DNA from: Stegostoma tigrinum
Taxonomy: Eukaryota
Reading direction: 5' to 3'
Assembly (NCBI RefSeq): GCF_030684315.1
Contig: NC_081387.1
Location: forward strand, 9,506,822 to 9,570,821
DNA length: 64,000 bases
A model generated the notes under the pieces. The model worked only from the letters and a program-made list of their open reading frames with translations. It had not been told where the DNA came from and did no database searches. Within the stretch, counting starts at the first letter, position 1. The number at the start of each line of letters is the position of its first letter. The position numbers were made by a program, and so were the translations under genes. Shown piece after piece: positions 590 to 51,530 of the stretch.

Positions 590-3069
590 CAAGTGTTTGT
601 GCAGAAACCGACGAGCTTTAGCATGAATCCCATTTCTCGAACAAAATAAGGTATCCATACAGCTTTGTCCCCGAAGAATCACAACCTGACCCAGGTAAAA
701 TGTACGAAATATGTTGACCACAAAAGCATAAAATTCCCAAAGACACTGAACAGTAAAATGATCTATTTCCTTTGGCTCTGCACTTCTGAGTTCCCGGACA
801 TCTTACTGCTTTTACGATCATGGAATCTCGTGCTACTTCTACCAGAAAGTAATACATGCCCTATGATCAATGAAATTAGTAGTAGAATCAGAGCGATTGG
901 GACATCTGAGGCAATAATATAGTGAAAGAGTTTAACTCTTAACCATGCTGGTGAATCCATAACATTTCGTGATGCAAAACAAAACAAAGGAACATTCCAA
1001 CTTCTGCATTGATCTACCAGCGTAACATGTCGTGTGAAGTCTTTCAGGTGGTTCAGTGCAGTCACTGTTCCTGTCGTGATACTTGCTGCCTTCTCGGTGC
1101 AGTATTGACTCCTCAGCTTTTAGTTTAAAAAAAGCCACAGATCAATCATAAGTGAGAATGACGGTGTAACAGTCAGAACAATCTGGGGTAGCATGAGACA
1201 GATCAGCATGAATATTACATGCGGGGATGAAGTACTGTAAAGCAAACTGCTTCTAATAATAAAATAGAAGGTGTCTTATTATGAGGTGGGTAATGACAAA
1301 AAGATCTGTCAAAAGCATAGTCATTGCATAATGTGTAATACACTTGGAGAAACTGAGCTTTCCCTGAATTAAGGTCATAATTGACATAATGTTAACTGCG
1401 AAAATAAGACATAAAGAGTGACGTTTAATTTAGACTGAAATTGAACTGAACACTTTCATGGCGTACTTAGAAAATTTTAACATTTTATACAGATACGCAC
1501 GCTTGTATGGAGAGGTGTGTGTGTAAAAGTGTCCAACAAATTAATGCATCACACATATATATGCATATATTTGGTGTTGCATGAATGTGTTCGACACTTT
1601 CACTCCTACTGACGTACATTTTGCATTTTGTCGTTGAAGAAGCAAATGGTCATTTCGGAAACTCCTTAATCTATTTAGACTAAAAGCTAAGTGTGTACAT
1701 ATATCCAGAACGACTTGCATTTACTTATAAGGCTGCATAGACAAATAAAGGTTGGTTTTACCTCACGCTGACAAGAACATCTCCCCTCACTATCGGTATC
1801 AAGCCGAATCATTATGCTGGAAGATGCGGTGTGTTTTGTGACCATGTGTAGAGCAATGCTTCTTCAATGACGAAATGCAAAATGTATGTCAGTAGGAGTG
1901 AAAATGTGTTCTGTGCCGCTGGTCAGATTCAAAACCACATCAGAATAAAGTTATGAAATTTTGCATACTTTGATTGGTCATGACCTATGCTTTGGTATTA
2001 TATTCAGAGCATTAATGAACTTTCACAAGCTGACATTGATCAATTAACAAACGGAAATGAAAAAATAAAGTTATTTAGACACAAGCGGTGTTTTCTTTCT
2101 TACAAGTGCCGTATCCTCCACAATCTGTTGCCTGATTGTGATGCCTTTCCAACTCATACATGTCAAGATCGTATTCGTTTCTATGACGTCATCACGTGTA
2201 ACGACAATGTAATGAAGAGATACTTCAATTCTGGGGAAACACGTTAGCACTGATGAAACTTAGAAGCTGGATAGCTGACAATGTGGTATATCACATTAAA
2301 ATTAGGCAGTGTTAGGAGGTCGCCAATCTGATAAGCCAAGACAATGCCTGAGGTTCTGAATCACAAATATTGCAATGTAGATATGAAAATTATCAGCGCC
2401 AATTACTGCACAAAATTATCTCTAGCTGATGGATTTAATCATTTCATTTTGGTAGCTGTGGGCTGGAATCTCCAAACACTTATGACATGTGATTTTAGAA
2501 GTTCCAAAGCAGACATCAGCCATACAAGCAAGTCCAAAGCAGAAGTCAGCACACAGTAATGGCAAAGAAGATTTTAAAGTGTGATGTTCGAGGTACATTT
2601 GGCCCTTCCAGAACTCTCTTCCTCCATTAACCATGGGGCCAAGATTTTCAGCTGTCTTTGATAAAGCTTTAAGTTTCCTGTAATTAAACCATTCTAAATC
2701 ACTGTTGAAATGAGGATTTCATTATATGCAAACAGCTGATTTGGATTTCTGAATTCTGCTCTGACTTCACAAAGATTTTAATTTTCATCAGAAGCCTTTG
2801 GAGTGAATACATGGTGAAATAGAGGATTTTGAACTCAGACTTCACAATTTTTTTGTGCAAATCAAGTGTAATTGAAACATGAGTTCTTTTGAAACACCGT
2901 CAAAATATGGTAGTAGTTGAACGCCTCAATAAAATGATGAGAACAGTAATGTAGGGGTGCATAGTTCATAGCATAAAGAAAACTTACCAGGAATGTCGAT
3001 GGCAGTAAGCAGAGAATAGTATATCTTTTCAATATCAACAAAGAAGTGATGTGTCTGCCACTGATCCAT
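590..3069 (-). pseudogene. GPR139-like pseudogene A (exon 1 3069-2988, exon 2 1395-~590)
   Basis: Exon 1 reads MDQWQTHHFFVDIEKIYYSLLTAIDIP-G|gtaagt (phase 1). The acceptor tcttattttcgcag leads into VNIMSIMTLIQGKLSFSKCITHY...DCSDCYTVILTYD*...KLRSQYCTEK...NVPLFC...EVQSQRK*IILLFSVFGNFMLLW...GFMLKLVGFCTNTW, collinear with the intact gene. Stops at 1253-1255, 1142-1144 (Arg of the DR motif), 763-765 and 679-681; frameshift near 1130. Confidence 0.9.
1598..1903. repeat. 47-bp inverted repeat (arms 1598-1644 and 1857-1903)
   Basis: tttcactcctactgacgtacattttgcattttgtcgttgaagaagca versus the reverse complement of 1857-1903: 3 mismatches. Confidence 0.9.
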
Positions 3070-4139
3070 TCCTGTGAAGCCACTGATACCTGCTCGTGCC
3101 AGAGGTGCTGCTGCTGACACTGAGGGATAAAGCACATTGAATCAATCCCCTAATAAAAGAAGAAAATAAAGTCTCAAGAGACACAATTTGGGTCTATGGA
3201 GATTGATACTAGTTACAGTCGCTGAACAAATGCATTCATTTAGCCACGTTCAAAGCATCACCCCCTGTTATTCTGGCATAACTGTTAACCTGCGGGAAAT
3301 GTCGAGCATGCATGCATCCAACAAGTTCCAACTATAACTGAACATTTTACTTTTGGTTAACCCTTTGAGTCGTGAGGTACAGGATTTGCTGGTCTCTAAT
3401 TTCTCTAGATTCTCTTGTCAAACAGCTTCTTTTCAGTGTTCCCTCATCACTGCTAAACTGACTCGAAGCAGCATTGTCAAAAGTTGGACATTGTACCCCA
3501 CGTGTCAATATCTGTCATCTTCATATCTCACTTGCAGGTATTTATGCAGCACCTGGCTGGTTGTTAATCAATTTCTAACAAGTGGTGATTTTATGAAACA
3601 GGAAGGTTTTCAATACAATTACATCATTTGTCGTTGTCTTATCAATGAGCGTATGCTGTTACAATTCACACATTACAAGGCATCTGAGTTTCTGACTGGC
3701 ACTGACAAGAAATGTTAAGGACATACCTGAGACAGTAAAGTTGGCATTTTGTTCACTGTTTTCCTTGTCTGCCCTAAGTAGTTTAGGTGTCAACTCAAAA
3801 AAGAGTGCACTCCTTGTAGATTTGCGCTCTCATGTGCTCAGACAGGCAGCTGTTGCACCACAGTCTCTGTAACTGCAGATGCACCTACAGAATTTCCGAT
3901 GTGTGGAGATTTCAATGCCAATTGCGAGGTTGCATGGGCACTTGAATATATCAACATCCTCCAGCATCACATTGCTAAAGTGAACCGTTGGTGGAGTGTG
4001 GCACCGTCCAGAACTATTTCACTTGTTTCATGATAATGCTGGTAGGCCAAACACTTAATAATCCTGACAGTGTGCTTCAATTTGAAAGCGCTCATTGGTA
4101 TTTCATTTAATGTAGGATCAACAACTTCCAGAAATCTCT

Positions 4140-5812
4140 TTTTATATCTCTCTCAGGTTTGATGTCTCTTTTTACAACCTGGACAATTTTTTTTTATGGT
4201 TTGTCTTTGGTGGTCGTGTTTACACCATTCATCTTCCCTAAGAAGACATTGGGCCTCTTTACTGCCAGTAAACATCTGCTTGAGAATGTAACTAACCTTT
4301 TCACACTCATTTTTTGTTTGCCTTTCTAATTGTGCTTTCTCAGCAAAACATTACTAATTGCACTGTCTTAACAAAAGCATTAATTCAAATTCTTCTGATA
4401 AGAGCGAAATTCAATCACTTTACAGCTTTTCCAAGCCATTGAACAAAATTTGCTTAGACCCCCCAAACAACTCGGAGAGATGTTAACTTCAACAACAATT
4501 CAGTATATGTTAGGCATTTACTTTCAGGTCCAGTGTGTTAAAAAAAGACATCAGGACATTATATTAGGGTGTACAATACAAACAAAGAGAAGACAATGCT
4601 TCATTCTGTGGAGTACATTTTGCAAATTTACTTTCTGAGAAGAGAATCATGTTTAAAACATTCTCCGTGATACATAGTGGAGTAAATGTCCAATAAGTTT
4701 TACAGTTACAGAATCTGTGATTATTCTTCTACTGGGTTACAATACTTTAATCATGCTTATGATTAAACACTGAGAAATTCCTCCATCGGAGAAAGAACTT
4801 TCTCGATATCAACTTGTGTTTGATGATCGTATAGCTGTGTTACTTGGAGCGTTGGGATTGGTAAAATGCTACCTAGAGATAACTACCTAGCTCTGGCATG
4901 ACAAATGATAACCACCACTGCCTCTGACTTCATTTGACCCACATTCTTTGATACTGGACCTGTTGACTTTTCGATCACACTCTACATCACAGTGAGTTCT
5001 CTGCACCTGAAGGCAGTGAGGTAATTTGATGAAGTTATAGCAACAGTAATTGTTGCATGGGCCAGCAATCTGTTGAAAGTTAATCATGAGCATCCCCTAC
5101 TGCAAGTTGTAGTGGCCCACATTTAAGTCAACAAGATACCTGCTTGCAACTTTATCCACACAGCTAGGCTTGTACTTCTCCAAGTAGATAAGCTGAGATT
5201 CTCTGTCAGATGAAACATGAGGCAAGTTAATCAGGTTATTGTAAACAGGCAGTTGTAGGCATACAAAAATTCTAGTTATGGCATCTTTGTAAGGCATAAT
5301 TGAGCCACAGACTGAAATTTTATACTTAGTAAAAAGTAGAAAGAAAAGCCTGGTTCTACAGTATTCTGAGATGTGCAGGTAATTGTACAATTGGAAAGGC
5401 AAACAAAAAAAGACAGTGAAAAGGTTAGTTGCATTCTCGAGCAAATGTTTACTGGCAGTAAAGAGGGCCAAAGTCTTCTTAGGGAAGATTAATGGTGTAA
5501 ACAAGACCACCAAAGACAACCGGAAGAAAAATGTCCAGGTTGTAAAAAGAGACATCAAACCTGAGAGAGATAAAAAAAAGTTGAAACTTAATTGCAGATG
5601 TAGATGACTCAAACAATTTTTAATATCCAAAGGTCAAGGGAAGAGTGACAAAGACAGGTTGCAAAATATAAGGCGAAGATTTGGTTTTTGTCTCCTAGTT
5701 GTTTGTGGAATCAAAGCAAGTTTTGTTCAATGGCTTGGCAATATTGTAAAGTGACTGAACTTCGCTCTTAACAGAAGAATTTGAATCAATGCTTTTGTTG
5801 AGAAAGTACAAT
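4140..5812. repeat. Inverted, circularly permuted duplication of a ~300-430 bp segment
   Basis: 4140-4335 is the reverse complement of ~5385-5580, and ~4345-4455 is the reverse complement of ~5712-5812. Confidence 0.85.
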
Positions 5813-12726: not shown

Positions 12727-13087
12727 ATATTGCAATCCTTCTATCCATGCCATTTCTAAAACAACATATTTCTCTGTTTATACCTCATTTGCCAGCTACC
12801 TTCTCACTCCACGAACTTGTCAATGACCTTTTGGATTTCTACACTGTTCTCTCACAGTTTATGATGCTTTCAAGTTTTGTATCATCTCGTAATTTACACT
12901 GTGCAGAGAAATTTAAATAATTAAATGTTCGTTGGGAAATTAACACCTCCCAATTCTGAGCTCTGCAGAAATCCACTACATGTGTTCATTTGACTTGAAA
13001 AGTTATTCATTAGCTATTAATGTCAGTGTCCTACCAATCAACCAATACAGCTTCCACTTTACGAGTAGTTAAACTATGGATACTTAC

Positions 13088-13172
13088 CAAGAATAGCAAC
13101 AGTAGCAAGGAGAGAACAGTAAATCTTTTCTATACCAACAACTAATCAACTAAGCCTCTTTGGCTGGAGCTT
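13088..13172 (-). pseudogene. Orphan GPR139-like exon 1 (pseudogene B)
   Basis: KLQPKRLS*LVVGIEKIYCSLLATVAIL-G|gtaagt, with the same phase-1 donor as the other copies. No ATG and an in-frame stop; no matching exon 2 found. Confidence 0.75.
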
Positions 13173-13436
13173 GTGATCCTTCTTTATTCTCCTACTGCCA
13201 GGAAGAAAGTGAAAATAACTGAAATGAGTCGATTGTTAAAAGCCGAGGTAAAATGTCCAGTGACGTAGTTTAGTTCGAAGGAGACCAGCATTCATGGTAG
13301 TCGCTGAACCAACAGGGCCAGTTGACCCTCTTTCCAAACAATATGTGCACTGTCAAAACATGCTAACGCTTCCATATCCATGAAAAGGATCTGGCGGCCA
13401 TTGGTTAGACTGATAATGTTTAAATCATTGTTAGTT

Positions 13437-13714
13437 GACACGGTGTCTCAGTGATTTGCACAGCTGCCTCACAGCGCCAGGTACCCAGGTACAATTGCAG
13501 CCTTGGGTAACTGTCTGTGGAGTTTGTACATTCTTCTCATGTCTGCGTGGGTTTCCTTCGGCAGTGTAGGTGGATTGGCCATATTGTCCAGGGACGTTTG
13601 GGTCAGACATGGAAAATCAAGAGTAGGATAATGGTTCTGGGTGGGGAGCTCTTCAGAGAAGCGCTGTCGACGTATTAGGCCAAATGGCCTGTTTGCACAC
13701 TGTGGGTAATCTAT
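13437..13714 (+). mobile_element. HE1/V-SINE-type SINE
   Basis: tRNA-like head (cacggtgtctcagtg...gctgcctcacagcgccagg), V-domain gagtttgtacattcttctcatgtctgcgtgggtttcc, and tail ggccaaatggcctgttt...ctatg. Confidence 0.85.
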
Positions 13715-16510
13715 GCTAAATTTATTCAATTTCTAGGCCACTTACTCATACCGGTAAGAGTGCACTACACTGCTGTGTTTCTAGAACCAGGAAGTAACAG
13801 CTAAATATGACAAATGTTTTTTCTTAAAGAACATTCCTGAGAGAGTCGATTATTTTGATGATATTCCGCACAAATAAAATAATTTACTCATCTGTTTTGT
13901 GGCACTGTGTGAAATACATTTTGTAATTCTATGAACTCCGAACGAATAACATTGTTATTATCAACGCACTTAGTTTCTATGCAAAAACAATATAAACGGG
14001 TTAAATACACTATCCCTTTTAAAACAATCTTGCTGATGAAGAACGATTTGAATGTTGTATTAACACTGTGCTTTCGTCCAGGCCAATAATATTAGACTTT
14101 CTTCAGCAGGTTGTGCAGTTTGTAACATTAAATTGGCAAGATCAGAGATCATGCTAAAATTATGTCTTTCCACAACATCTCATTAGTCAGTGGAACCATT
14201 TAATCATACTTATTCAGTGAGTTTGTTTCATTTTCGGTATGATGTTGCTTTTATTTCTCCTGATTTTATTATTATGGAAATGTCCATGCAAAGAATGGCA
14301 GATTCTAAAGTTCAGCCTTTCTCATAGCTGCCATTTTCCCCTTCATAGTAAGAGAGTACTATAATAGCAACCTATGCTTATAGTACAAAAATCTATTTGG
14401 GGCGGTGATGGTGTTGTTGATACATTTAAAAATGCAAAGTTTGTAAGACCTATATGCGGGGATAATCTCAAACATTTTGGAACAGTACTCAGCATCCAGT
14501 TGTCACCTTTTAGATTTTGCATTGTTGATGCGATTCTATAGCTGAATGGCATCTTCTGTGCTCTTTGACTCCGTGACGATAATTTAACATTTTGCCCTGT
14601 GACTCTGATTCTCAACAGCAATTCATTTCATAAATGGCTTTATAAGGAACATCAGTAAAACTAAATTGATTTATTGCATTGCCCTTCAGTCGATCCCATT
14701 CGAATACTTTTTAACAGTATTAAGGTTTGGATTGATTATCAGTGCGAAGGAATCCCGATTACACAATCAAACAGATGATTTTCCACCAGGTTGCCATAGC
14801 TATGCAAACATGCAAGTATGCAAATATTCCTTGTTGTGTTTACTAATTGCGAAAACACAACTATTTTCAATGTAACATGAAAGAAACTGGCAGAGCGACA
14901 GTAACATGCAGCCTACCATTGAGGAACTGCGAGCCGACGTTTGTTTGTCATTTAGCTCAGTTGATTCAATGGTTGGATTGCAACGCATAACAACACTGAC
15001 AGCCTGGCACACCAGCTGAAGTTCCCAAGACACACCTCCCCTGAAGTGTGGTGAGCTTCAGGCTAAGCCACTACTCGGCATTTCCTCACAGCACCGTGAT
15101 ATAAGCAATATTGTCTTTCTAATCCTCATGCATTAGTGCATCAGGAGTCGTAACTTTAATTTAATGTCTGCTATCATTGTCTGGTAGACAGAGTCCTCTG
15201 TAGATAACACAGTTAGGAGACAATGCTACGCAGATTTTGAAATTGGTTTGAATGAAATATAAATGACAGCTTTTTTTTTCAATCAATGTCAGATAGGTTC
15301 ATTAGTTTACTTCTTTGCTCGTGTAACATGCCAATCCTTGAAAGGTGGTATCTGGCTTTAAGTTACGTTCTTAACTTGGCCCTTGTGGAATCATTGCTAC
15401 TAAAGTTTTTTTTATTATTATTATTTTGTCCAGCTGGTGTCTGCTTGAAAGCGCCAAACCACATCTCATCAACGTGCAAAATTCATGGACATGGTTGCTG
15501 TTGCCGTTTGAAGGAATCACACAGCAATGTTTTCGTTTTCTGGTGATTGATGTTAAAGATTTTTCACAGATTTTTGATAACATTGTCTTATGAGGTTTGT
15601 GCACTCTCTGATTTCTTGACACAAGCTATGAAGTCATATCGCACAGCTTTGGTCACGTGCTATTTTCTACCCTGTGAATCAGCCCGAGACGTCACTGCCT
15701 TATTTTGTGGGTTAGTGGTTTTGTATCCTGGAAGGACAGTTTGATCAATTATTTTGACTTAGAGTGGGATATAAATGAAAGTCCACACAGGTTAGAGTTG
15801 GAATTTCCAGATCCTTTATAGTTTACAGGAGCATGTTGCCTAGGCTTCACTGCCTTAGCCAACTGCTGATGCTACGGCAATTCAAAGGAATTATCATGAT
15901 ATTACAGTTAGTTTTTCGTGCGGTCATTTGTGGTTTCTTCACCAGCTGCATCTCCAACATGCCTTAGTAATGCATGTTTTCAATTCAGGGTTATGAGGCA
16001 AGTGACCTGTTATTAAATTACAAGTTTACAGATGTCCTTGATATTTCCAACAGACAATTATTGAGTCCCGTCATAGCCAAAGACACTATAGTTTGATCAA
16101 TAGCGACAGTTTTCTGGAGAGTACTGATGAACGACAGCAAGCCAGTTTCTAGAGCCCGATAATGCATAATCATTGCATAGCTGTTCTTCTTTCTTTGCAA
16201 GCAATGGTACATCATCAGCACAGAAGAGTTCTTTGATCTCGAATTATTACACTTTCGTATTTGCTTTTAATTTCATCACGATATCAACCTATTGTGGACT
16301 TATTGTTGACCTGCACTGTGGTTTGTGGTCCCCAGGGAAACTTAGGTTATTTGCACCAAAAGAAAAATGACAAAGCAATTGTACTTTTATTTCACTATAT
16401 ATCTCTGGATGAAGTAATAATATTTTGGTATCTCTTAAGATACCGCAAATTTGCCGATATTCGATCGCCAGTCTGAATTATCTTTTCATTTTTAACAATC
16501 TTACACACAG

Positions 16511-16880
16511 TTAACATCATGACCGTTATGGTATTATATCAGGAAGGTGTAATTTCTCCAGATGTGTTCCACACTACCTGGTGGTCATGGCAGCCTCAGA
16601 TATACCTGCTGCTATTATTGGCTTGAAAATGAGGCGTATTTCCCATGGTTTACCTGAAAAACAAGCAGTTTCGTTTACTCCACCCTATCATGTAATGTCT
16701 GTGCTATTCAATTTTACGCTACTACAGAGGGTTCTTCATGGCTCAATAGCACTTCTGCCTTTGATCGATTTGTGATTCTGTGTTCCCACAGAGTTAGACA
16801 TTGTACAGGAGAACTACAGCTGTGTCTCTGCGGAGTAACTGCACTGAGCTTTTTAAAGGATATCACATGGGGTCTTTATG
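16511..16880 (+). pseudogene. GPR139-like exon 2 remnant (pseudogene C)
   Basis: Acceptor cttacacacag then VNIMTVMVLYQ..HYLVVMAASD...; after a frameshift YATTEGSSWLNSTSAFDRFVILC (gat cga ttt at 16763-16771)...LKDITW. Confidence 0.82.
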
Positions 16881-19800
16881 AAAAGCGATCGAATGTTCAG
16901 GGTCACAGGCAAACTGCTCAACAGCACAACTAGATTGTATATATAAGCTCAATTGAAGAGTAGCTCTGAGTTGGTTGTGATAACTATGAGAAATTATTGA
17001 GTGAAGTGGAGTAGTAAATACCCACAACGAAAATAAAACAAATTACACAATATAGCCTACACATTTTTAGTGAGGAACTTTCATGTTTAAGACATCACTC
17101 ATTATTAAAGTTACCAATGAGATCCCATAGTACATACACTTAAAGCAGCTTCTTACAAAATACAGTGCAAGTGGTGTTTTTAGGTTTTGTATTCGCTATT
17201 GCAAGTTTTTCTATCCTCTCTGATTTAGTGTCTGAGATACTATCTCATTCAGTATATGGAAATACACACTTGAGACAAAAACAACTAATTTTCATTTCAA
17301 GCAGAACGTATTTCCTGATAATTCACATAATTTTATCCAGACTATTGTCAATGGAACAAATTCATTCATCCAAAGAATTTCCTTTTCTTAAAAAACTTCA
17401 GGCAGCATTACAACTTAACAATAAGCACAACAACATTGTGTTTGGTGTTCACCAAATAAAACTATGTCCTTCTATTTACATAAATTGATATTATGGAATG
17501 TACAACTGGGACACAGCCTGATACAAATGAATCATGTAATTCGAAAAAAAAGTCACAAGATCCAAAATGTATGCCTGTGACTTTTTTCCATGTCTCCAAC
17601 TCTCCATCTTGTTCTCAGATTCATTTCATTCGTCTGCATTCAGCTGTGCTCAGGAGGGAGCAGAAAGCATTACCACCTGACATTGGGATTACTCCCGAAT
17701 CACGGTATTTTGAGGTACTTGACGAAAACAATACGTCATAATGCTGAACAAAATGTAATAACTAAACAGCAACCAAGTGGAAATACGTGATACATTAAAC
17801 GTTGGGATCTTTTGTGGAGCAGTAATTGGACTCAAAAACAAGAGATTACAATAAAGTTGAAAATACAATGATGAAATTATTAAAATAAGAATCAATCAAA
17901 ATACACTTTTCCAACTCAGAGTTGATGTGTTTGCAAGGAAAGGAAATACCATGTCAGCAGCTTGACAAAATGCATCAGCTGCAGGATCCAATCTTATTTT
18001 CAACAGATTATTTCCAGTCCACACTATCCTTCTTTATTATATCATTATCCACTGGAGTTCTTTCAATAACTCCAATAATGTATTTGCCTATTTTCGCTTT
18101 GGAGGTTGAATAACGATCTTGTACACCTCAAAGTCATTTGAGGCTTCTAGAACGCACAGTTATAATTCTTTTCCAGATGTTGTATGAGCAGAAATTTCTG
18201 TCCTTGGCAATGACATTTGGATATCTCAGGTATAAATCACAAATGGGCTATGTTAAATTGGAGTTGAATTAGCAACAGATACGGCACCTTTTGCAATCCT
18301 CTCCCTGCTCTAATTAAATGCTTCAACTTTCTCTTGGCCCATTATAAAATTCATCTCCTGAATTTATCCTCTATAATACAATATGCATATCCTTCTTCCT
18401 GATTATCGGACGCAAAACTCCCCATATGCTTTCCTCAATAAATCCCCACAACAATTTCCCTGCTCACATTCTTCCCTCTTCTTTTCCCATCCATGATTTT
18501 TCCCACTCTCATTTACAATTCTTCAACCACTTCTCCACAATCTCCTCCAATTCTATGAGCACTGCTCCCGTTTCCCCATAGTTAGAATCACTCCAGTGCA
18601 GAAAAAGACAATTTGGCCCATCGAGTATGCACCAACCCTCCGAAGATCATTCCACCTCACATTAACTAAGGATAATCTATCTAAGATGCAATTCAGTTCG
18701 ATATTTTATCCTCTCAATCGCATTCCCATCTCATCTAACATTTCTTCCTCCTCCAATTCTCACTCAATTGCCTCTCCCTCTCAACATCCCATTTTACAAC
18801 TCCATTTCCCAATGCTATTCCTCGGATCCCTCTTCCCTATGCTGCTGCTCTTTCCCAGTCTGCAATCTTCACAATCATTAATACTCTTACTGCACCAGCT
18901 CACCCCCACATCACGTTTCTTCTCGCATTCGAATCTGGCTCATTCTTCCTTCTACCCTTCGGCTTGCACTCAATGATCCACGCTCCTTTCACCCATTTCT
19001 CCAATTCTGTTTCATAACTAGCAGATCATTCTTCCCTTTAAACCCTCCTTTGTTTCTGTTACCCATAACATACACTCCATACCCTTTCTCGTAGACAACT
19101 CTCACAATGCTATTACTCTCAATTCTCGCTTCAGTGACGCCCCCATATTCCCATTCCTTTTCTCCCCTACCCCATACCTTCGAAGAAACTCTTCTGGAAC
19201 TCGTTCTCACTTTTTGTTTGAAGTTTTGACTCTTCTCATTTAGATCTTGTGTTGAAACACTCATACCATTCTTTCTGTATTATCTTTGTCTGTTACCTTC
19301 TCCCGGTAGTTTTGCATGTGCATTAGGAGAAGGATCTGCTTTTGTTCCTGCTTTTCCTGTATATCTTGCTCCTTATCAGAAATCCTTGGGAAACATGTAT
19401 TCACTGTTCCCAATGAGTGGTGAAGACAAAAAGTACAGAGAAGCGTGAATTCCAAGTTGTGAGTTGATCTCCAAGAATTTTGTTTTAAAAATGTGCCCAG
19501 TGATAAAAGGAAGGTATCCAAAGGCAAAAAGAACTAAGCAACAGCTGCTCTCCTGGATATGGGCATTGATTTTGCATTTCAGCATTTGGGCTCTTTGCAG
19601 TCTCTCAGTTTCATGAAAAAAACACTCCAACCCTGTTCTCTCAGTTTTTCTATCGTAGTGAAATCCATCAAACTAGGGAACCTCTGTTGATTACAGGTGT
19701 TTAGTTAACTTTTCAGCTCACCGATAATTTTATTGTCAATTACAATCCTGTTAGCTCCATCCACATCTGTAAAAATGCCTGCGTTAATACATAATGGTGG

Positions 19801-20699
19801 CGATGTGCTACATGATTCCTGACTGCTACCAATGCTCAGGGCTTCAAGCTCATCATGCACCCAAACACAGTTTCTCATGGCAGTTAAAACGTTGTTCAAT
19901 GTATCCCTCAAGAGCGGGACCAAGGGTAATTTCCTACAATATCTTTACATATACAACCAATACTTTCTCATTGAAGATATAATGGCTTATCATACTTTTA
20001 AAATCAAATTCGGTAAAGTATTAATCAAGCATTTAGTCTCCAGCAATAGACAACAAGTTGCTTCTGAAATATATTTCATCATGTCTCATAACTTGCACGA
20101 CTGAGATGAATTAATTGTGACTGCCTCAATCATTCCATGTAAAAAAAAACTTTTATAACGGTCTCAGGGGAGATTAGTCATTAATCACAAGTTTTTTTTG
20201 AAGATGATTTATTCATTTTGGTTTGGGTTGTAAATTGATTCTGTAATTCACTCCTGAATTAGAAGCTCACAAGTACCTTTTGCATTGATTTTTTTTCAGC
20301 ACTGAAAGTAATTGCTGGTCACATATTTTGTTATATAATTGCATATTTTCAAATCCCACCCCCATTATAACTCAGCACGCCGCCGCACTCCTTATCTTGT
20401 ATGATAGAATGCAAGTTTAGTCTTGACAACATGTCCGTACAGTTCGACCCTTGAATCCCTGGCGGTTTATCATTTGCCCTCGAGGATTATGGATAAATTG
20501 CTGGAACCAACAGCTTGTCCACGTGCTGCGAAATGATTGCAGCAGAGCTATTTGGAGCCGTTGAAATTAATGGTGTCTCTTGATTTGAAGCTTCTTAAGT
20601 CAATGTACTTGTACTCAATCCTTAAACTGACTGGTCAAAATTAAACAAGGCAACGAGATGCCAGGATTCAATAGGAGACAACTCAGGGGCTCTTTTAGC

Positions 20700-20805: not shown

Positions 20806-21103
20806 AAGAGACCCGAGGAAGCACTCTTTAGGTGAAAGTTTATTGATAAGTGAATGTAACAGAGTGTTTATCAGAAAATAATGAAATTATAGACATAGTT
20901 TGAATGGCTCATGAAATTTCTGGGAAGTTATAGTTTCCTTTTGCTAATTGATGTCAGAAAAAAGTCTATCACGATTCTTAAAATTTCCCCTCTGTTCTAA
21001 ATGTTGCCCATTGAAACGAGGCTGTGATAACTTGTTTATGCATTTTCCACTAAATTAAACTGAACAGCTGCACTGTCAATATCCCTGAGGAGATCCCATG
21101 CGG

Positions 21104-21111
21104 TATAAATA
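21104..21111 (+). promoter_or_regulatory. Candidate TATA box of the intact GPR139-like gene
   Basis: TATAAATA starting 87 bp upstream of the exon 1 ATG. Confidence 0.5.
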
Positions 21112-21190: not shown

Positions 21191-21254
21191 ATGGAATTTT
21201 TTCACAGCATCAGCAAAATATATTACACGATTATTGCTGTCGTCGGTGTGCCTG
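21191..21254 (+). CDS. GPR139-like receptor, coding exon 1
   Basis: MEFFHSISKIYYTIIAVVGVP-G|gtaagt (64 nt, phase 1). Splices in frame to 22524 and completes TM1 (GVPVNL). Confidence 0.9.
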
Positions 21255-21534
21255 GTAAGTAGCTATGACTATGCAAGTTTTGCAAAACTGTGTGTCATAT
21301 GGTTACTGTTTTTGTTCTGTGCCTATCAAAGCTACATGGTGATCTGAAGGCGATCCCCAGAAAGACGTTTGCTCTGTGATACCTTGTCTTGCCCAAAAGT
21401 GATGAAATACTTAAACGGTGAGATCCTATCTTCTCAACGGATAACAGACATAATTGCAAGTCAAAGGCTCATTGAATTGCATAGTCAGTGCACTTTGTAG
21501 AATATTGTGCTCAGCTGAATCAAAAACAATGCAG

Positions 21535-22219
21535 GCAATAAACAACTGCACCTCCCAGTCGCAAACCATTTCCACTCCCCCTCCCATTCTTTAGATGACA
21601 TGTCCATCATGGGCCTCCTGCAGTGCCACAATGATGCCACCCGAAGGTTGCAGGAACAGCAACTCATATTCCGTTTGGGAACCCTGCAGCCCAATGGTAT
21701 CAATGTGGACTTCACCAGCTTCAAAATCTCCCCTTCCCCCACTGCATCCCAAAACCAGCCCAGTTCGTCCCCTCCCCCCACTGCACCACACAACCAGCCC
21801 AGCTCTTCCCCTCCACCCACTGCATCCCAAAACCAGTCCAACCTGTCTCTGCCTCCCTAACCTGTTCTTCCTCTCACCCATCCCTTCCTCCCACCCCAAG
21901 CTGCACCTCCATCTCCTACCTACTAACCTCATCCCACCTCCTTGACCTGTCCATCTTCCCTGGACTGACCTATCCCCACCCCACCTCCCCACCTATACGC
22001 TCCTCTCCACCTATCTTCTTTTCTCTCCATCTTCGATCCGCCTCCCCTCTCTCCCTATTTATTCCAGAACCCTCACCCCATCCCCCTCTCTGATGAAGGG
22101 CCTATGCCCGAAACGTCAGCTTTTGTGCTCCTGAGATGCTGCTGGGCCTGCTGTGTTCATCCAGCCTCACATTTTATTATCTTGGATTCGACAGCATCTG
22201 CAGTTCCCATTATCTCTGA
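21535..22219 (+). mobile_element. Penelope-like element 3' fragment in the GPR139-like intron
   Basis: Nearly identical to ~42990-43670: GIY-YIG C-terminus (RRLQEQQLIFRLGTLQPNGIN), 39-bp internal repeats, a C-rich tract and the terminal region. Confidence 0.9.
22088..22119 (+). ncRNA. Minimal type I hammerhead ribozyme-like motif (Penelope-associated)
   Basis: CTGATGA-A-GGGC-CTAT-GCCC-GAAA-CG-TC-AG: core, 4-bp stem II and palindromic ACGT stem III, but only 2 contiguous bp of stem I. Confidence 0.6.
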
Positions 22220-22523
22220 TAGCTCATGATATTACTTTGGGTTGCAGTAGAGTCTGGCAGTCTCCACAGCACTTTTTTTTTCAGTGCGAAATTCACTCTA
22301 TGTGGAAGCATCGCTTATTCATGAAAGAAAAAAAAATTATGTGCATGAACTGTTTAGCATCTAGTATTTACAAATTAATCACACTGCAACTATTTTTTAA
22401 AAAATAGTTCATCCTCTTATTTTGCCTACAAATCTACATATAGAGAAACCTTACCTTGTCTACCTGAATCCTGTAATATGTCATCAGTAAATTTCAGCCT
22501 TTTTTTTCTTGTCCCTCTTACAG

Positions 22524-23434
22524 TTAATTTAGTTGCAATTTTAATCTTATCCCGGGGAAAGTGCGGCCTTTCGAAATGCACGACGTACTACCTCGTCGCT
22601 ATGGCAACCACGGATCTACTGGTCATTACCACTGCAGTCATATTTGAGAAGATAAATACTTATTATTTTCCAGGATCATTCCTGGATATCACTCCCATAT
22701 GCAGTGTTATCTTCGTCCTTTGCTATGTAGCCACAGACTGTTCTGTTTGGTTCACTGTCACTTTCTCCTTTGATCGATTTGTGGCCATCTGTTGCCAGAA
22801 GCTGAAAGGAAAATATTGCTCAGAGAAAACAGTCACCGTGGTTCTTGCAACAACCTGCATTTTGCTCTGTTTAAAAAATATCCCCTGGTACTTTGCAGTT
22901 GAATCAAAAGAGTTAATTGACAATATACCTTTTTTCTGCAATATAAAACCAAGCTATTATACTGATCCAGGCTGGGTGGGGTATAATTGTGTTGATAAGG
23001 CATTAACTCCATTGCTCCCATATATTTTTATTCTGTTATTCAATGCTCTTACAGTAAGACACATATTCGTTACTAGTCGCGTCCGTAAGAACCTCAGGAG
23101 CCAAAGAAAATGTGACAATCACAGTGATCCAGAGATGGAAAGCAGAAGGAAATCTGTGATCTTACTGTTCACCATATCTGGTAGCTTCGTACTCTTGTGG
23201 CTGTTATACCTTGTGGAATTCTTTCTGTATATCATTACTGGAATGAATCCCGAGTATTACAATCATTCTTTATGTATATTTGCAAATGTTGCAATTATGA
23301 CGCTGAATTTAAACTGCTGTACAAACGCATTTATTTATGGGGTAACTCAGTCCAGGTTCAGAGAGCAATTCAAAAGTGCTGTTAAATATCCTGTCATATT
23401 AATTATTCGAAATCTTAATAAACACAACAACTGA
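22524..23434 (+). CDS. GPR139-like class A GPCR, coding exon 2 (spliced product 324 aa)
   Basis: Polypyrimidine acceptor ...ctcttacag; open 7TM frame with YYLVAMATTDLL, FDRFVAIC, LLPYIFILLFN, SVILLFTISGSF and CTNAFIYG; stop at 23432-23434. Confidence 0.93.
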
Positions 23435-33003: not shown

Positions 33004-33221
33004 AGCAGTTAGCAGCACCACAACAGACTACAGAATAGATAAATCATTGACAAATCAACTTCCCACACAAACAAATGTGACACAGTGCAATTTGGCAGGA
33101 AAAACAGAGAAGCCACTCCTTCGCTTCAGGAAGGTGTTGCGTTGGTAGGTCAGAAACAAAAAGATTTCAAAGTACAAAGGGATTAACCATTTAAAATTGT
33201 ATAAAATCCAGATCATACATC

Positions 33222-34915: not shown

Positions 34916-34919
34916 ATCA

Positions 34920-39639: not shown

Positions 39640-40464
39640 AACGAAGTGGAAACGCTGGTAATATCTCTTCCCGTTGACTTGCTTTGAAAAATTGGAGAGT
39701 CATTCCATGTAAAATGTATTTGAACAGCAGTGTAACTATATCGCGACAACTGCGCCTCATCCGGAAATGTGTGGAGAATCATTGAAATATTCAGGCTTAA
39801 TTCCTGTCGTGATATGACATAAAATCCGAAAGCAACAGGAACGTGAAGCTGCCGGATGTAGTGGAGACTACATTTACAGACATCCTTCTGCTCTCCATCT
39901 TTGTTCTGACGCCTGAGTCCCTTATGGACTGAAAAGGTCCCAAAAAAATGTGAATGATAGAGCTGGCAGCAACTGAATTAAAGCATGGGAAATAGTGATA
40001 TTGAAATCTTATTAAAGCAATGAAAAGCCAACCATGCAGAATTTATATAATAAATGTGACTTGAAATTACAGAACAAGTGAATAGTATAAAATAATTTCT
40101 CTGCATTCAGTTGTAATTTAAACGATCTTTCAAACTAAGCAGAATGCTTTATCACTTGAACGCACAGTTTCAGTGGGCTTGCTGAAAAGTTTTACTTTCA
40201 GCTTGTTGGAATGAATTGCTATGAAATGATGAAATGAGAAATGATAGAGAACCAGTAAGATGTTATAAGGCTGCATATTGTAGTCCAAAGGGATCACTAG
40301 GCCCTGGTACGATGTTCATTTAAGATACTGGGAAGTACTGAGGACAGCTCTGATTCAGTAAAACCGCAGAACACGTGGACAGTATATATGCTGTTACCAT
40401 ATGGTGAAGAACATCTAGTGCCCATTGAAACGTGTTTTTGCAAAACATAAGAATTGAATGCATC
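39640..40464 (-). pseudogene. GPR139-like exon 2 remnant (pseudogene D)
   Basis: Minus-strand pieces SFHHFIAIHSNKLKVK, LFCNFKS..SAWLAFHCFNK, MESRRMSV..TSGSF and TGIKPEYFNDS..LHCCSNTF are collinear with the intact gene; many stops and frameshifts. Confidence 0.82.
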
Positions 40465-41346
40465 TGAGATTAGAGACCACAGGGTTTTTTAAATATAAAG
40501 CTTTTGAAGTACAGTGGGAAATATGACGGTCATCGAGGCAAGCAACTGCCTCGTGAACTTTATCTAGCAGGAAAAGAAAATCATTCTCAGTATACGGATA
40601 TCACAGCACCGAATATCATCAGAGAGATGAATCGGTTAACTGGATAAGAGACACGCTAAAAACGCTCCTAGAATCCGGTTTCTATCAGAAGACAAAGAGA
40701 CAGTTAAAAATGCCAAAGGCCAATAAATATCTACATCTCAGTATGGTAATGTGCTTCACAATCAGCGCTAAAATAGCATATACATAGGCCATGCTACGCT
40801 GTAAATCACTGTCTTGAGTTTATCGCTACAGTTCACTTGCTTACGTAGCGAACTTGTTCTGGCCCTGTTTCATCAAAATTCCCTCCAAATTAAACATTAT
40901 TGCAAATCTATTTTCAAAAACAAGAGCTTTAAAACGGAAAACCTGTCCACAATATTGCAAAGAATGGACCTTGGCACATGAAACAAAATGTATCATTCAG
41001 CTGGATGAATGTATTATCTGGTGAAGCATGATACAGCATAGGCTGATGTTCCTGAGAAGGGAAGGACATATTGAACAAGGTTAACTCAGAGTGAAGATTG
41101 TTAGTCACAAAGTAAGCGTGTTGGGATAAATCCTGAAGCCATTGAATACAGCTGAGTATTGTCAAGCACAAGAAAAATACAATGGTTAATTTTCCAAAAA
41201 GAAAGTTATTTGCAGTTCCAGTCTGCACCATGAAGCTACAGAGACATAATCCTGCAAGGAGCTAGAAACAAGGACTCACTGGTGAGTGCTGTACAAGTGG
41301 CCTTTTATGCTATCATAGAAGAAATGTTTTAGGTACAGTAAAAAAA

Positions 41347-43670
41347 GCAGTGCCCTCCGCTCCCTCCGCTCCAATCCCAACCTCACCAACAAACCCGCAG
41401 ACAAGGGTGGCACAGTGGTAGTATGGTGCACTGACGTCTACATCGCCGAGGCCAAACGCCAACTCTCCGACACCACCTCCTACCGCCCCCTCGTTCATGA
41501 CCCCACACCCGAGCACCAAACCATCATCTTCAACCCCATTCATGACATCATCACCTCAGGGGACCTCCCACCCACAGCCTCCAACCTCATTGTTCCCCAA
41601 CCCCGCACGGCCCGTTTCTATCTCCTTGCCAAAATCCACAAACCTGCCTGCTCTGGTCGACCCATCGTCTCAGCCTGCTCCTGCCCCACCGAACATATCT
41701 CCACCTATCTGGACTCCATTTTCTCCCCTTTGGTCCAGGAACTCCCTACCTACGTTCGTGATACCACCCATGCCCTCCACCTCCTCCAGGACTTCCAATT
41801 CCCTGGCCCCCAACACCTCATTTTCACCATGGATGTCCAGTACCTGTACACCTGTATTCTGCATGCAGATGGCCTCAAGGCCCTCCGCTTCTTCCTGTCC
41901 CGCAGGCCCGACCAGTCCCGCTCCACCGACACCCTCATCCGCCTAGCTGAACTCGTCCTCACACTCAACAACTTCTCTTTCGATTCCTCCCACTTCCTAC
42001 AAACCAAGGGGGTGGCCATGGGCACCGGCATGGGCCCCAGCTATGCTTGCCTCTTTGTAGGTTACGTGGAACAGTCCCTCTTCCGCACCTACACGGGCCC
42101 CAAACCCCACTTCTTCCTCCGTTACATTGATGACTGTATCGGCGCCGCCTCTTGCTCCCCAGAGGAGCTCGAACAGTTCATCCACTTCACCAACACCTTA
42201 CACCCCAACCTTCAGTTCACCTGGGCCATCTCCAGCCCATCCCTCACCTTCCTGGACCCCTCAGTCTCCATCTCAGGCAACCAGCTTGTAACTGATGTCC
42301 ATTTCAAGCCCACCGACTCCCACAGCTACCTAGAATACACCTCCTCCCACCCACCCTCCTGCAAAAATTCCATCTCCTATTCTCAATTCCTCCGCCTCCG
42401 CCGCATCTGCTCCCGTGATGAGGCATTCCATTCCCGCACATCCCAGATGTCCAAGTTCTTCAAGGACTGCAACTTGCCCCCCACAGTGGTCGAGAACGAC
42501 CTTGACCGCGTCTCCCGCATTTCCCGCAACACATCCTTCACACCCCACCCCCGCCACAACCGCCCAAAGAGGATCCCCCTCATTCTCACACACCACCCCA
42601 CCAACCTCCGGATACAACGCATCATCCTCCGATACTTCCGCCATCTACAATCCGACCCCACCACCCAAGACATTTTTCCATCCCCACCCGTGTTTGCTTT
42701 CCGGAGAGACCACTCTCTCTGTGAGTCCCTTGTTCGCTCGACACTGCCCTCCAACCCCACCACACCCGGAACCTTCCCCTGCAACCACAGGAAATGCTAC
42801 ACTTGCCCCCACACCTCCTCCCTCACCCCTATCCCAGGCCCCAAGATGACTTTCCACATTAAGCAGAGGTTCACCTGCACATCTGCCAATGTGGTATACT
42901 GCATCCACTGTACCCGGTGTGGCTTCCTCTACATTAGTGAAACCAAACGGAGGCTTGGGAACCACTTTGCAGAACGCCTCTGCTCAGTTCGCAATAAACA
43001 ACTGCACCTCCCAGTCGCAAACCATTTCCACTCCCCCTCCCATCTTTAGATGACATGTCCATCATGGGCCTCCTGCAGTGCCACAATGATGCCACCCGAA
43101 GGTTGCAGGAACAGCAACTCATATTCTGCTTGGGAACCCTGCAGCCCAATGGTATCAATGTGGACTTCACCAGCTTCAAAATCTCCCCTTCCCCCACCGC
43201 ATCCCCAAACCAGCCCAGTTCGTCCCCTCCCCCCACTGCACCACACAACCAGCCCAGCTCTTCCCCTCCACCCACTGCATCCCAAAACCAGTCCAACCTG
43301 TCTCTGCCTCCCTAACCTGTTCTTCCTCTCACCCATCCCTTCCTCCCACCCCAAGCCGCACCTCCATCTCCTACCTACTAACCTCATCCCACCTCCTTGA
43401 CCTGTCCGTCTTCCCTGGACTGACCTAGCCCCTCCCCACCTCCCCACCTATACTCTCCTCTCCACCTATCTTCTTTTCTCTCCATCTTCGGTCCGCCTCC
43501 CCCTCTCTCCCTATTTATTCCACAACCCTCACCCCATCCCCCTCTCTGATGAAGGGTCTGGGCCTGAAACGTCAGCTTTTGTGCTCCTGAGATGCTGCTT
43601 GGTCTGCTGTGTTCATCCAGCCTCACATTTCGTTATCTTGGATTCTCCAGCATCTGCATTTCCCATTATC
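41347..43670 (+). mobile_element. Penelope-like retroelement, 5'-truncated: RT plus GIY-YIG endonuclease plus terminal region
   Basis: KPADKG, KIHK..GRPIVS, QTKGVAMG, RYIDD (42120-42134), VVY..YIS (GIY-YIG); 1-nt deletion at ~43043; hammerhead-like core at 43546-43573. Confidence 0.95.
43544..43575 (+). ncRNA. Minimal hammerhead-like motif in the Penelope terminus
   Basis: CTGATGA-A-GGGT-CTGG-GCCT-GAAA-CG-TC-AG; stem II contains G-U pairs. Confidence 0.5.
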
Positions 43671-49614: not shown

Positions 49615-51095
49615 ATGGACCAGTGGATAGTAAATAATTTCATTGTTAACTTTGAAAGGTATACTATACTATGCTTGCTCTTATCGGTATTTCTGGTAAG
49701 TCTTCAAGTCGAATTATTAATTCCACAGACTTTATTTAAATGCATTAATGTTTTTGACATTAAGCCAGTTACAATATTAGTTGAATGTCTGTCATGCTTG
49801 GTGTCATGTTAAAACAAGTTCATCATGGCCAGAGGTCCAATCTCATATTGGTTTTAGGATAAGACTCATCTGACTTTGAAAAATAAACAAATAAGCACTG
49901 TAATGTGAGAAATCTGCTGAGGTCAGTTGAAACAATCTGCCGTACTTTGTTTGATGGAAGAACAAGTCAATTCTGGAAAAGCAAAGCCTGCCGCTAGAGA
50001 CAGTGAGTACTTTGATCCTTATGTTTTTGTTTGGAATATCTCTGCCATGCCTGCGTTACAGTGAATGCATTTTCATCTTAAAACCACAAGTTGTGGTGGT
50101 AGCAAACGCCTGATCACAGGTGGGGTCATGACCTATATTAACCATCAGCCAGAGAGTACTGGTTCCAAGTGTGAGTTTGAGGGTTGTCATATCCTTTGTG
50201 ACAATAAGCCTCTGGTCAATTCATCTGGTCACTTTGCACAACTTTCTTCACTATGTCATTGGGGATGCAACATCTTCCATCATCTGTGCACGTCCAGCCC
50301 CAGAAAGACTTTATTAATGGTTTATCAACAAGATCCTAGGTTTATGCCTTGATTATTTTGTCCTTTAAATGGCAAGGGTATCTGTAGGTTTTGGAATTGT
50401 ATGTTGTTGAACATTTGCTATTGGCGGTTACAAGTTGTGTAACCTTAGTTGCCATTCACCAAAGCACAAAACATATAGATCAGACTGTGGACATAAATAT
50501 TGGCTATCTATGTACTAATATGTTTATTTTTCTTTGTCGATTTCATTAGTCAGCCAACGTTCATGCATGACATTTTTTGTCGTGATGAGGTAAATAGGCT
50601 GGCAACAGACTCTTTTTCTGTCACCATTTTTCCAATGTAGTGGAATGTACAGTCTGCTGACAATCATGTGTTGTTGAGTATTGATACGTAGAAACATATA
50701 AATCTTTCCTCTCATAACAACATTCTGTAAACTGTTTCTGAAGGTGTACATGGCAGACACCTGACATAGATTATCCATGAGCATGTTGAAGTAATCTTCT
50801 GACTGTGTAAATAGGGTACCACATCATTAACATACAGACATTCCTTTAAAAGAATACATAATTTTCAGCCTTTATTGCTAGAAGATTTTCTCATCTAATC
50901 GTGCCTCCAGGTACATTCCCTCCATGTCAACATTGTTAGTCTAGTCAGTATCACCAACGTAAATAAACCATACAAAACATAGGCAAAGCAAAATATCACT
51001 GAATATCAAATAACTGTTTGGCATTTATTGATAATTCATAACAGAACATTAAATACGATTCCCTATATATATATATATATGCATGTATGTATGTA

Positions 51096-51130
<35 letters not shown>

Positions 51131-51530
51131 CAGTCAATCTAGTGACAACTCTGATGCTATCACATGGAAAATGTATTGAATCCAAATGATTTGGTTTTGT
51201 TTCTGATTTATAGCGTTCGCAGTTCTTTGGGTTTTTATTAATGATCTGCTGATTGTTATCATCAACCTGATAATGATGGACATTCCAGTCACTCATTATA
51301 AACAAGGTATTACTGTGTTGTCCATTCCCCACATGCATTATTGATCCACATCCTGTTCACAGTCACCTTCATCACGATAACTCAGAGAAAACTTCATCTG
51401 TGGCTCTGCAAACAGTGACTGTACTACCATGTTTATTGTAAATGAGGTGGCATTTAATGCTTATGGATCAGTATTGCCTGTGGAATGTCCCCTTACATTT
51501 CCACATTGTGAAGCTGTAATAGGGCATCAT
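49615..51530 (+). pseudogene. GPR139-like pseudogene E (exon 1 49615-49695, exon 2 from 51134)
   Basis: MDQWIVNNFIVNFER/YYTMLALIGIS-G|gtaagt with a 1-nt deletion; exon 2 NLVTTLMLSHGKCIESK*..DLLIVIINL..LFTVTF..SEKTSSVALQTVTVL..DQYCLWNVPL. Confidence 0.85.
51064..51130. repeat. (AT)n/(GTAT)n/(GT)n microsatellite
   Basis: Directly visible; abuts the exon 2 acceptor of pseudogene E. Confidence 0.9.

Follow-up and report, generated by a model that had tools for sequence, protein, structure and literature searches.

The 64,000-nt stretch of zebra shark DNA analysed here (the window) contains one intact class A GPCR gene and five decayed relatives, labelled A to E (Table 1). Pfam assigns the intact protein to 7tm_1 (E-value 2e-22) and to nothing else at E≤0.001, and its structure model (pLDDT 86) has the 7TM fold, with ECL2 predicted as a β-hairpin. 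The protein carries D2.50, C3.25, DRF, P5.50, W6.48, N7.49 and Y7.53; P6.50 and P7.50 are missing. The 7tm_1 match, the seven helices, D2.50, the (D/E)R(Y/F) motif and the N..Y of TM7 place it in class A (rhodopsin-like).

Table 1. Receptor genes, remnants and candidate promoter sites, with positions in the window.
Feature	Position	Strand	Description
Intact gene	21191..23434	+	two exons, 324 aa, without stop
Intact gene, exon 1	21191..21254	+	64 nt (21 codons + 1 nt), phase 1; N-terminus and first half of TM1; donor G/GTAAGT
Intact gene, intron	21255..22523	+	1269 nt, phase 1, in TM1
Intact gene, exon 2	22524..23434	+	remainder of TM1, then TM2-TM7 and helix 8
Candidate core promoter, intact gene	21082..21109	+	TATAAA 87 nt upstream of ATG; the positions also span the EBF/Olf1-like site of the next row
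EBF/Olf1-like site, intact gene			one mismatch; 109 nt upstream of ATG
Pseudogene A, exon 1	2988..3069	-	27 codons + 1 nt, open; donor kept
Pseudogene A, exon 2	586..1395	-	TM1-TM7; aligners differ on the lesions, giving 1-3 frameshifts and 3-4 stops
Remnant B	13088..13172	-	lone A/E-type exon 1 without a start codon; donor kept
Remnant C	16511..16880	+	acceptor and 5' part of exon 2 (TM1 to TM4)
Remnant D	39640..40474	-	exon 2 with 7-11 frameshifts; neither acceptor nor exon 1 remains
Pseudogene E, exon 1	49615..49695	+	1-nt deletion; donor kept
Pseudogene E, exon 2	51134..51521	+	5' part, heavily decayed; weakest remnant

Exon 1 of the intact gene is 100% identical to the RefSeq-named P0001. 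The RefSeq model XP_048419850.2 has extra exons at ~9499, 15414 and 17619 and an altered C-terminus, and is probably mis-joined, because a TATA of its own precedes the two-exon form, which also matches relatives of 324-325 aa. As a core promoter, the TATA and EBF/Olf1-like sites are a weak lead only: they were picked out post hoc (a 400-nt stretch holds 0.22 and 0.1 of them by background), the latter by the EBF consensus, and such sites were not found in the flanks of A, B and E. Neither AATAAA nor ATTAAA occurs within 1.1 kb downstream of the stop, and the 26-bp upstream satellite of another genome was not seen here. LINE and Penelope-like pieces are abundant throughout the window; a 680-nt retroelement piece in the intron of the intact gene (21535-22214) is 96.5% identical to 42991-43670.

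Recognition of the remnants

With a profile built from 67 family proteins, and with the reversed window as null (best score 3.8 bits), remnant scores reached 107 bits for A, 37 for D and 25 for C, and the start of exon 2 of E scored 7.9. A frameshift-aware scan (best null 25.7) gave 156 for A, 67 for D and 60 for C; exon 2 of E, at 20, is not significant by that test alone. We nevertheless accept E because its exon 1 matches that of A (70% over 110 nt, E-value 3e-13), its exon 2 scores 109.5 against the intact exon 2 (maximum of 200 nulls, 81.5), and a DNA profile built without it recovers it at E-values of 0.005 and 0.05. Exon 1 of B is 78% identical to that of A over 60 nt (E-value 2e-10). 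All five remnants placed by an earlier note were therefore recovered by profile and DNA tests, E being the weakest.

The same note's phase-1 TM1 intron, shared wherever exon boundaries survive, is also borne out by the junctions of the intact gene, A, B, C and E. The donor G/GTAAGT is present in all four exon-1 copies (intact, A, B, E); the acceptor is CAG/TTAA in the intact gene, A and C, and CAG/TCAA in E, where a TA microsatellite stands in place of the pyrimidine tract. D has no recognisable acceptor. The exon-1 profile finds exactly four copies within the window, and the exon-1 and exon-2 DNA profiles give nothing else above the null there.

Both exons survive only in A and E among the five. 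C has 2-3 frameshifts and the remainder of its exon 2 is missing; no exon 1 for it was found on its strand, nor an exon 2 for B on B's strand. B and C may be one gene whose first exon (B) became inverted, and the five remnants therefore represent four or five dead genes. Thus, the earlier count of one intact gene and at least five dead copies stands for the intact gene and for the number of remnants, but not for the number of dead genes. As to possible breakpoints of such an inversion, no inverted repeat brackets B and the intron sequences are too decayed to align. Overlapping independent DNA contigs (two samples from one study, possibly the assembly's own source) tile 13000-21562, each departing from the window by 0-1 letters, and exon 2 is matched in the same manner. 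An assembly artefact is ruled out by these contigs for 13000-24500, a stretch without A, D and E, and since they agree, neither the opposite orientation of B and C nor the lesions of C are assembly errors.

Age and mode of duplication

DNA identity of the remnants to the intact exon 2 is about 60% at most (D, 58-64%). They fall into two subfamilies: exon 2 of A (support 100/100) and C group in the "RHIP" subfamily, which skates also have, while D groups with the intact gene (100/99) on a long branch. B and E probably belong with A and C; the best protein matches of E are A-type, and the flanks of E and B are homologues of ~200 nt lying 5' of A exon 1. Their age and their split between two subfamilies show that the remnants did not arise by recent copying of the intact gene, and the earlier view of them as its dead copies fails for A and C, only D sharing its subfamily. 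A retrocopy origin is ruled out because intron and 5' flank are retained.

Duplication proceeded as whole DNA units, with intron and 5' flank carried along; members of two ancient subfamilies are interleaved on both strands, and one gene is intact. Frameshifts, deletions and possibly an inversion have disabled most of the copies. The proposed birth-and-death clustering thus holds: paralogues are clustered, pseudogenes are present and the two subfamilies are mixed. The window almost certainly holds a small, old, mostly dead cluster of a large elasmobranch class A GPCR family.

A family of sharks and rays

A family search returned 2020 matches at E≤0.001 among 3139 candidates. The best 120 of the 2020 are all from sharks and, by hand count, include 70 distinct proteins of Heterodontus francisci, 26 of them on one 74-Mb sequence. 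In zebra shark, paralogues are spread over at least 4 sequences, and named members of the family occur also in skates and rays. In each of the DNA runs of the animal, a paralogue-type letter (FS>FT) stands at 22766 in 43-49 further contigs. Their summed depth exceeds that of unique contigs (7-23) by a factor of thousands, a qualitative figure that was not converted to copy number because overlapping short contigs inflate depth.

In trees built without true GPR139 and GPR142, 28 shark and ray sequences fall into a single clade (97/93), whose sister (98/98) is an amphibian/sturgeon orphan listed once per species; a coelacanth-type orphan is the next relative. A separate single-copy relative is also retained in sharks. 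The repertoire is lineage-restricted, as had been suggested, the elasmobranch clade being seen here only in sharks and rays. Subfamilies are common to sharks and skates, and therefore this diversity has been retained over a very long period.

Databases name these genes automatically "probable GPR139". We found no description of the family in the literature within reach, which excluded subscription journals, bioRxiv supplements and the catshark supplement. Of four papers that mention both GPR139 and sharks, one is PMC8514136 and the other three, going by title, do not deal with shark genomes. Term searches of the available text of PMC10620051, PMC11979771, PMC10869828, PMC12208981 and PMC11886862 gave no relevant mention, nor did those of the available parts of eight supplements of PMC13188829 or of PMC8455134 with 24 supplements, apart from one orthogroup line for GPR142.

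Relation to GPR139

Among receptors with solved structures, the human receptor nearest to the intact protein is GPR139, which comes first whether the query is the single sequence, the profile or either of the sister orphans. NTSR1 follows in the PDB ranking, and the nearest solved structures are peptide receptors. The match to GPR139 (PDB 7VUG) reaches 35 bits with the single sequence and 104 bits with the profile, at ~21% identity; the protein is far closer to other orphans (E-values 1e-27 to 1e-28). No true GPR139 or GPR142 was recognised among the search results by a motif check. By generic numbering from the sequence alignment, one of 14 GPR139 agonist contacts is kept, W6.48, which is invariant in 87 of 87 family proteins. 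At the agonist pocket residues F3x33, H5x43, W6x48, N7x38 and R6x51 of GPR139 (PMC5430874; PMC8807744; available text), the intact protein has Y, D, W, I and Y. On alignment and tree, the shark receptors are a separate clade of the GPR139/142 branch and not GPR139 orthologues. The earlier label of a GPR139-like array is therefore right as to the branch and wrong if read as an expansion of GPR139 itself, the clade being separate and the agonist contacts gone.

Diversification of the binding pocket

Across 52 Heterodontus paralogues, mean entropy is 1.57 bits at pocket sites, 0.87 at other sites of the extracellular half and 0.34 in the intracellular half (p 0.001), and 1.69 at the 14 published GPR139 agonist contacts (p 0.001); these p values are optimistic because sequences and pairs are not independent. 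The generic pocket sites were chosen after conservation had been viewed, whereas the published contact list is independent of that. The corresponding values are 0.05/0.37/0.38 for amphibian orthologues and 0.74/1.06/0.74 for Latimeria-type orthologues. At matched identity (70-82%), paralogues differ at 49% of pocket sites and 12% of intracellular sites, compared to 1.4% and 14% of pocket sites in the two orthologue sets. The 52 paralogues have 51 different seven-site pocket signatures. The hypervariable positions lie in TM2, TM3 and TM7, the pocket sites of TM5 and TM6 are fairly conserved, and the intracellular, G-protein-facing half is nearly fixed. Thus, against two orthologue controls, the pocket is hypervariable relative to the rest of the receptor, as in chemoreceptors. 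Positive selection or relaxed constraint may explain this alike, and such diversity, taken as a sequence pattern, is equally compatible with sensory, immune or reproductive use.

Possible roles

The family is probably a diversified ligand-detection repertoire. Each paralogue would bind a different small polar or peptide-like ligand, and all would feed into a common G-protein pathway, which from the example of GPR139 may be Gq or Gi/o. Least certain is that the ligands would be external chemical cues met in the nose, in taste or solitary chemosensory cells, or in the gut. Chemosensation is the most likely role, at slightly under even chances. The best explanation as a whole, a cluster from a diversified repertoire by which sensory cells read external cues, has about an even chance of being right. 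Known olfactory receptor genes in cartilaginous fishes average only 43.8 (PMC10869828, available text), and it is a tentative suggestion that the family is an unrecognised chemosensory one, derived from the GPR139/142 peptide-receptor branch, larger than all known elasmobranch olfactory families together and sparsely expressed in olfactory or other sensory cells. Against a chemosensory role, catshark olfactory neurons are microvillous and V2R-dominated (PMC10116579, available text), and a brain-plus-nose library has no GPCR in its top 50 genes (PMC11979771, available text).

A repertoire of immune or barrier receptors is unlikely but deserves weight. Leukocytes, mast cells or epithelia would use it to detect microbial or damage peptides, as the FPR and MRGPR families do; those families show birth and death, a variable pocket and a fixed intracellular face, the pattern seen here, and the nearest solved structures are those of peptide receptors. 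MAS1 and its relatives are absent from cartilaginous fishes according to the available text of the whale shark paper (PMC8455134), which also favours an immune use. However, there is no sequence kinship with the chemoattractant or MRGPR branch (GPR139 and then NTSR1 lead the PDB matches), no immune gene was found in the window, and the mammalian relative is expressed mostly in the CNS (PMC8514136, available text).

It is distinctly unlikely that the receptors form an internal peptide or identity code, whose ligands in brain, gonad or sperm would be a diversified set of peptides, endogenous or linked to mating. The modelled β-hairpin of ECL2 and C3.25 resemble those of peptide receptors, but endocrine pairs do not usually show such heavy pseudogene turnover, the role would better suit the single-copy relatives, whose pockets are fixed, and we know of no matching large peptide family in sharks. 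The kinship of the branch does speak for such a code: GPR139/142 share their origin with protostome MIP (sex-peptide), FMRFamide, proctolin and myosuppressin receptors (PMC8514136, available text).

Mostly neutral amplification in retroelement-rich regions, with pockets freed of ligand constraint and receptors constitutively active or redundant while most copies decay, is improbable. It would suit the window, where four or five of five or six genes are dead, LINE and Penelope-like pieces fill the sequence and P6.50 is lost in the intact gene's subfamily; but across dozens of paralogues the pocket varies more than adjacent non-pocket sites while intracellular sites stay nearly fixed, and the sharing of subfamilies by sharks and skates speaks of diversity long kept. 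That the copies are amplified GPR139, sensing L-Trp and L-Phe like the mammalian receptor, is hardly credible despite the best match among solved structures and the database name, given a score of only 35 bits, the loss of 13 of 14 contacts (H5x43, R6x51 and N7x38 replaced, the one kept being the invariant W6.48) and a shark clade nested among other orphans.

Whether sensory or immune, the family gives the sister group of bony vertebrates a large and unstudied repertoire for recognition. Its representatives in the window are few and mostly dead, a modest sample. Surveys count ~44 olfactory receptor genes per cartilaginous fish and ascribe the keen nose to sensitivity rather than discrimination (PMC10869828; PMC10116579; available text). 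They mined known families only, and this one was hidden behind its automatic label. If the chemosensory reading is true, it would overturn the view that cartilaginous fishes traded odour discrimination for sensitivity and add a further, independently evolved class of vertebrate chemoreceptors.

Comparison with known receptor systems

GPR139 has the same 7TM fold, and NxxxY without proline in TM7 is common to both. Human GPR139, however, aligns Asp where the shark family has C3.25, and it is one conserved gene, whereas the shark receptors form multigene clusters with a replaced agonist pocket. GPR210A/B and a third set (Rinne et al. 2019, PMC6504862, in which the term "shark" does not occur) belong to the same branch. 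The GPR139-like orphans outside mammals are listed about once per species and have fixed pockets, unlike the multigene shark family with its variable ones.

At the genome level, the family resembles OR, TAAR, V1R, V2R and T2R in its clusters on several chromosomes and its pseudogenes, and also in its variable pocket with a fixed signalling face. It differs in being an unrelated class A branch with two coding exons and a TM1 intron; membership in any of these families is rejected, 7tm_1 being the only assignment at E≤0.001 and none of them being among the PDB matches listed. The rodent vomeronasal FPRs are a further chemoreceptor expansion of this kind. Nematode srw chemoreceptors arose from peptide-type rhodopsin receptors (PMC3963977, available text), and srw-labelled clusters are among the nearest feature matches to the shark receptor; these and other invertebrate expansions from peptide-receptor branches are independent of that of the shark family.

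Receptor array and dead copies

Our sequence comparisons indicate that the array in this repeat-rich vertebrate DNA is real, and that it represents a clustered, pocket-diversified receptor repertoire from the GPR139/142 branch. The intact gene encodes a class A GPCR (Pfam; confident structure model, pLDDT 86). The best protein match for the window, a zebra shark RefSeq model from a 31.9-Mb sequence, maps exon by exon with up to 100% identity, which marks the window as zebra shark or something near-identical. Contigs from DNA runs reproduce 13000–21562 and intact exon 2 with 0–1 differences per piece (two samples, one study). A TATA box and an EBF-like site with one mismatch lie upstream of the gene, a weak hint, noticed post hoc, at the tissue of expression.

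Features of the window
Feature	Position	Strand	Remarks
Intact gene, exon 1	21191–21254	+	gene model from sequence
Intact gene, intron		+	1269 nt, phase 1, between exons 1 and 2
Intact gene, exon 2	22524–23434	+	spliced product with exon 1, 324 aa
Remnant A	3069–586	-	dead homologue
Remnant B	13172–13088	-	dead homologue
Remnant C	16511–16880	+	dead homologue
Remnant D	40474–39640	-	dead homologue
Remnant E	49615–51521	+	dead homologue
Retroelement	41319–43670	+	576-aa RT-like ORF; weak RVT_1, E 3e-4
3' retroelement piece	21535–22214	+	680 nt, 96.5% identical to the 41319–43670 element
LINE copy	28007–32054	-	endonuclease and RT domains
LINE copy	53776–55575	+	endonuclease and RT domains
LINE copy	33217–34919	-	endonuclease and RT domains
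Muscarinic M2-like ORF	61614–63044	+	intronless, intact; 504 bits to M2

The earlier note had placed five dead homologues near the intact gene, and all five were recovered at those positions. In both a profile search and a frameshift-aware scan, remnants A, C and D clear the reversed-window nulls by a wide margin. The evidence for B and E is mainly their exon 1, with 78% (E 2e-10) and 70% (E 3e-13) identity, respectively, to exon 1 of A; exon 2 of E is weak, falling below the null in the frameshift-aware scan and above it in three other comparisons. The phase-1 junction proposed as common to the copies is likewise borne out, with the donor G/GTAAGT in 4/4 exon-1 copies and the acceptor kept in 4/5 exon-2 copies.

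Only A and E retain both exons. B consists of an A-type exon 1 in minus orientation. C lies 3.3 kb from it in plus orientation and consists of an A-type exon 2 that lacks an exon 1; a single gene broken by inversion would explain both. An inversion breakpoint was sought in the window sequence and none was found. A 72-nt inverted repeat (11896–11967/12655–12726; arms 97% identical, ~690 nt apart), possibly a small DNA transposon, sits 360 nt beyond the donor of B.

Remnants were placed by ranking against 106 proteins and by a tree. A and C group with genes of skate, horn shark and sawshark and with further zebra shark genes (support 100/100), and D, on a long branch, joins the intact gene (100/99). 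The best-matching protein guided the read-throughs, a procedure that can favor such placements; the ranking agrees with the tree. The best protein matches of E are A-type. The placements, a DNA identity to intact exon 2 of ~56–64% over the longer matches, and ~200 nt of 5' flank common to A, B and E (scores 65, 45 and 38; null maxima 30–33) show that the cluster expanded as whole genes of two old subfamilies were duplicated at the DNA level, and that its decay has gone on for a long time.

Neighboring elements

The retroelement at 41319–43670 is presumably Penelope-like. The 680-nt piece takes up half of the intron of the intact gene, and its abundance across the genome is extremely high. Two of the LINE copies, which face opposite ways, share 94% identity over 1.8 kb. 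The M2-like ORF lies 10 kb from remnant E, and its exact stretch is absent from the protein collection searched. It keeps D3.32 and has His at 3.33 and Ser at 6.52, where muscarinic receptors have Tyr and Asn, and is possibly a paralogue that has diverged and binds a different ligand.

Family size and relatives

The exon-2 protein search matched 2020 of 3139 candidates. The best 120 matches all come from sharks (10 species), with 56–73% identity, self match excepted; 118 are labeled probable or putative GPR139, and 70, by hand count, belong to Heterodontus francisci, 26 of these from one chromosome-scale sequence. A search without word index gave 111 clusters at 50% identity (E≤1e-30). Skates and one stingray are among the members named in the protein searches, and no chimaera was seen there. 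Zebra shark paralogues spread over at least four sequences, and DNA runs of the same animal contain dozens of other contigs over the TM3 region with the family-majority FT, not FS.

Public annotations already contain the family genes, under a name assigned automatically; the literature searched yielded no account of the expansion, though supplements may hold mentions. Many RefSeq models (e.g. P0001, P0002, P0081, P0184) are mis-joined, with doubled TM1-4 or LINE-derived ends, and some are misnamed “vasopressin V2 receptor-like” or “capa receptor-like”; such models help to hide the family.

In a tree of 48 proteins, from which true GPR139 and GPR142 were absent, the 28 shark/ray sequences form one clade (97/93). 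Its sister (98/98) is a gene whose listed matches are confined to sturgeon and 20 amphibians, one entry for each species (P0234, P0404–P0423), with a nearly invariant basic pocket (R2.61, K6.51, K6.55, R7.35) and Asn at 2.50; this gene is a good starting point toward the ancestral ligand. A second conserved GPR139-like orphan (P0230, P0286, P0289, P0293 and relatives; Ser/Cys at 6.48, Thr at 6.50) ranges from coelacanth and teleosts through amphibians to turtles and squamates, and three sharks have their own orthologue of it; the best 120 of 145 matches included none from birds or mammals. Some of its models are wrongly merged with TMEM183A. In Rinne et al. 2019, bony-fish orphans of this kind are named GPR210 (PMC6504862).

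Pocket diversity

Near-full-length proteins were kept (87/119 shark, 52/70 Heterodontus, 91/119 coelacanth-type, 20/20 amphibian). Four site classes were compared: 27 generic class A pocket sites, 14 published contacts, 35 other extracellular-half and 81 intracellular-half sites. Mean entropies in this order are 1.57, 1.69, 0.87 and 0.34 bits for Heterodontus paralogues, 0.05, 0.11, 0.37 and 0.38 for amphibian orthologues, and 0.74, 0.64, 1.06 and 0.74 for coelacanth-type orthologues. When pairs are matched at 70–82% identity, those of paralogues differ at 49% of pocket versus 12% of intracellular sites, and for the two orthologue sets the pocket figures are 1.4% and 14%. Seven signature sites, picked for variability in sharks, give distinct signatures in 51/52 paralogues versus 2 signatures among 20 amphibians. 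The p values (0.001–0.01) are optimistic because the sequences are related, and relaxed constraint may contribute to the differences.

Most of the variation falls in TM2, TM3 and TM7, and D5.39, D5.42, Y6.51, F6.55 and Y6.58 of TM5/6 are kept in most paralogues, which suggests a shared polar anchor beside a variable sub-pocket. The pattern is the one expected of many receptors, each with its own ligand, that feed one signaling route.

Possible role

An immune role for the family is unlikely, and a code of internal peptides is a rather improbable reading. We give little credence to neutral amplification.

The GPR139-like label of the earlier note holds insofar as the closest match among solved structures is human GPR139, though at just 35 bits with a single sequence (104 bits in a profile search, NTSR1 next at 86), and fails as to GPR139 itself, since W6.48 alone is kept among the 14 TM agonist contacts described in the cryo-EM paper (PMC8807744). 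Agonist activation at the Trp/Phe site needs defined pocket residues in GPR139 (PMC5430874); the remaining activation residues are Tyr, Asp and Ile in the intact gene. Trp/Phe pharmacology should not be transferred to the shark family, for which such sensing is very improbable.

Chemosensation is our best, if tentative, guess because of chemoreceptor-like genomic behavior, the small olfactory receptor repertoire known in cartilaginous fishes (mean 43.8; PMC10869828) and the precedent of nematode srw chemoreceptors, which arose from peptide-type receptors (PMC3963977). It is weakened by the catshark nose, described as V2R-dominated (PMC10116579; PMC11979771).
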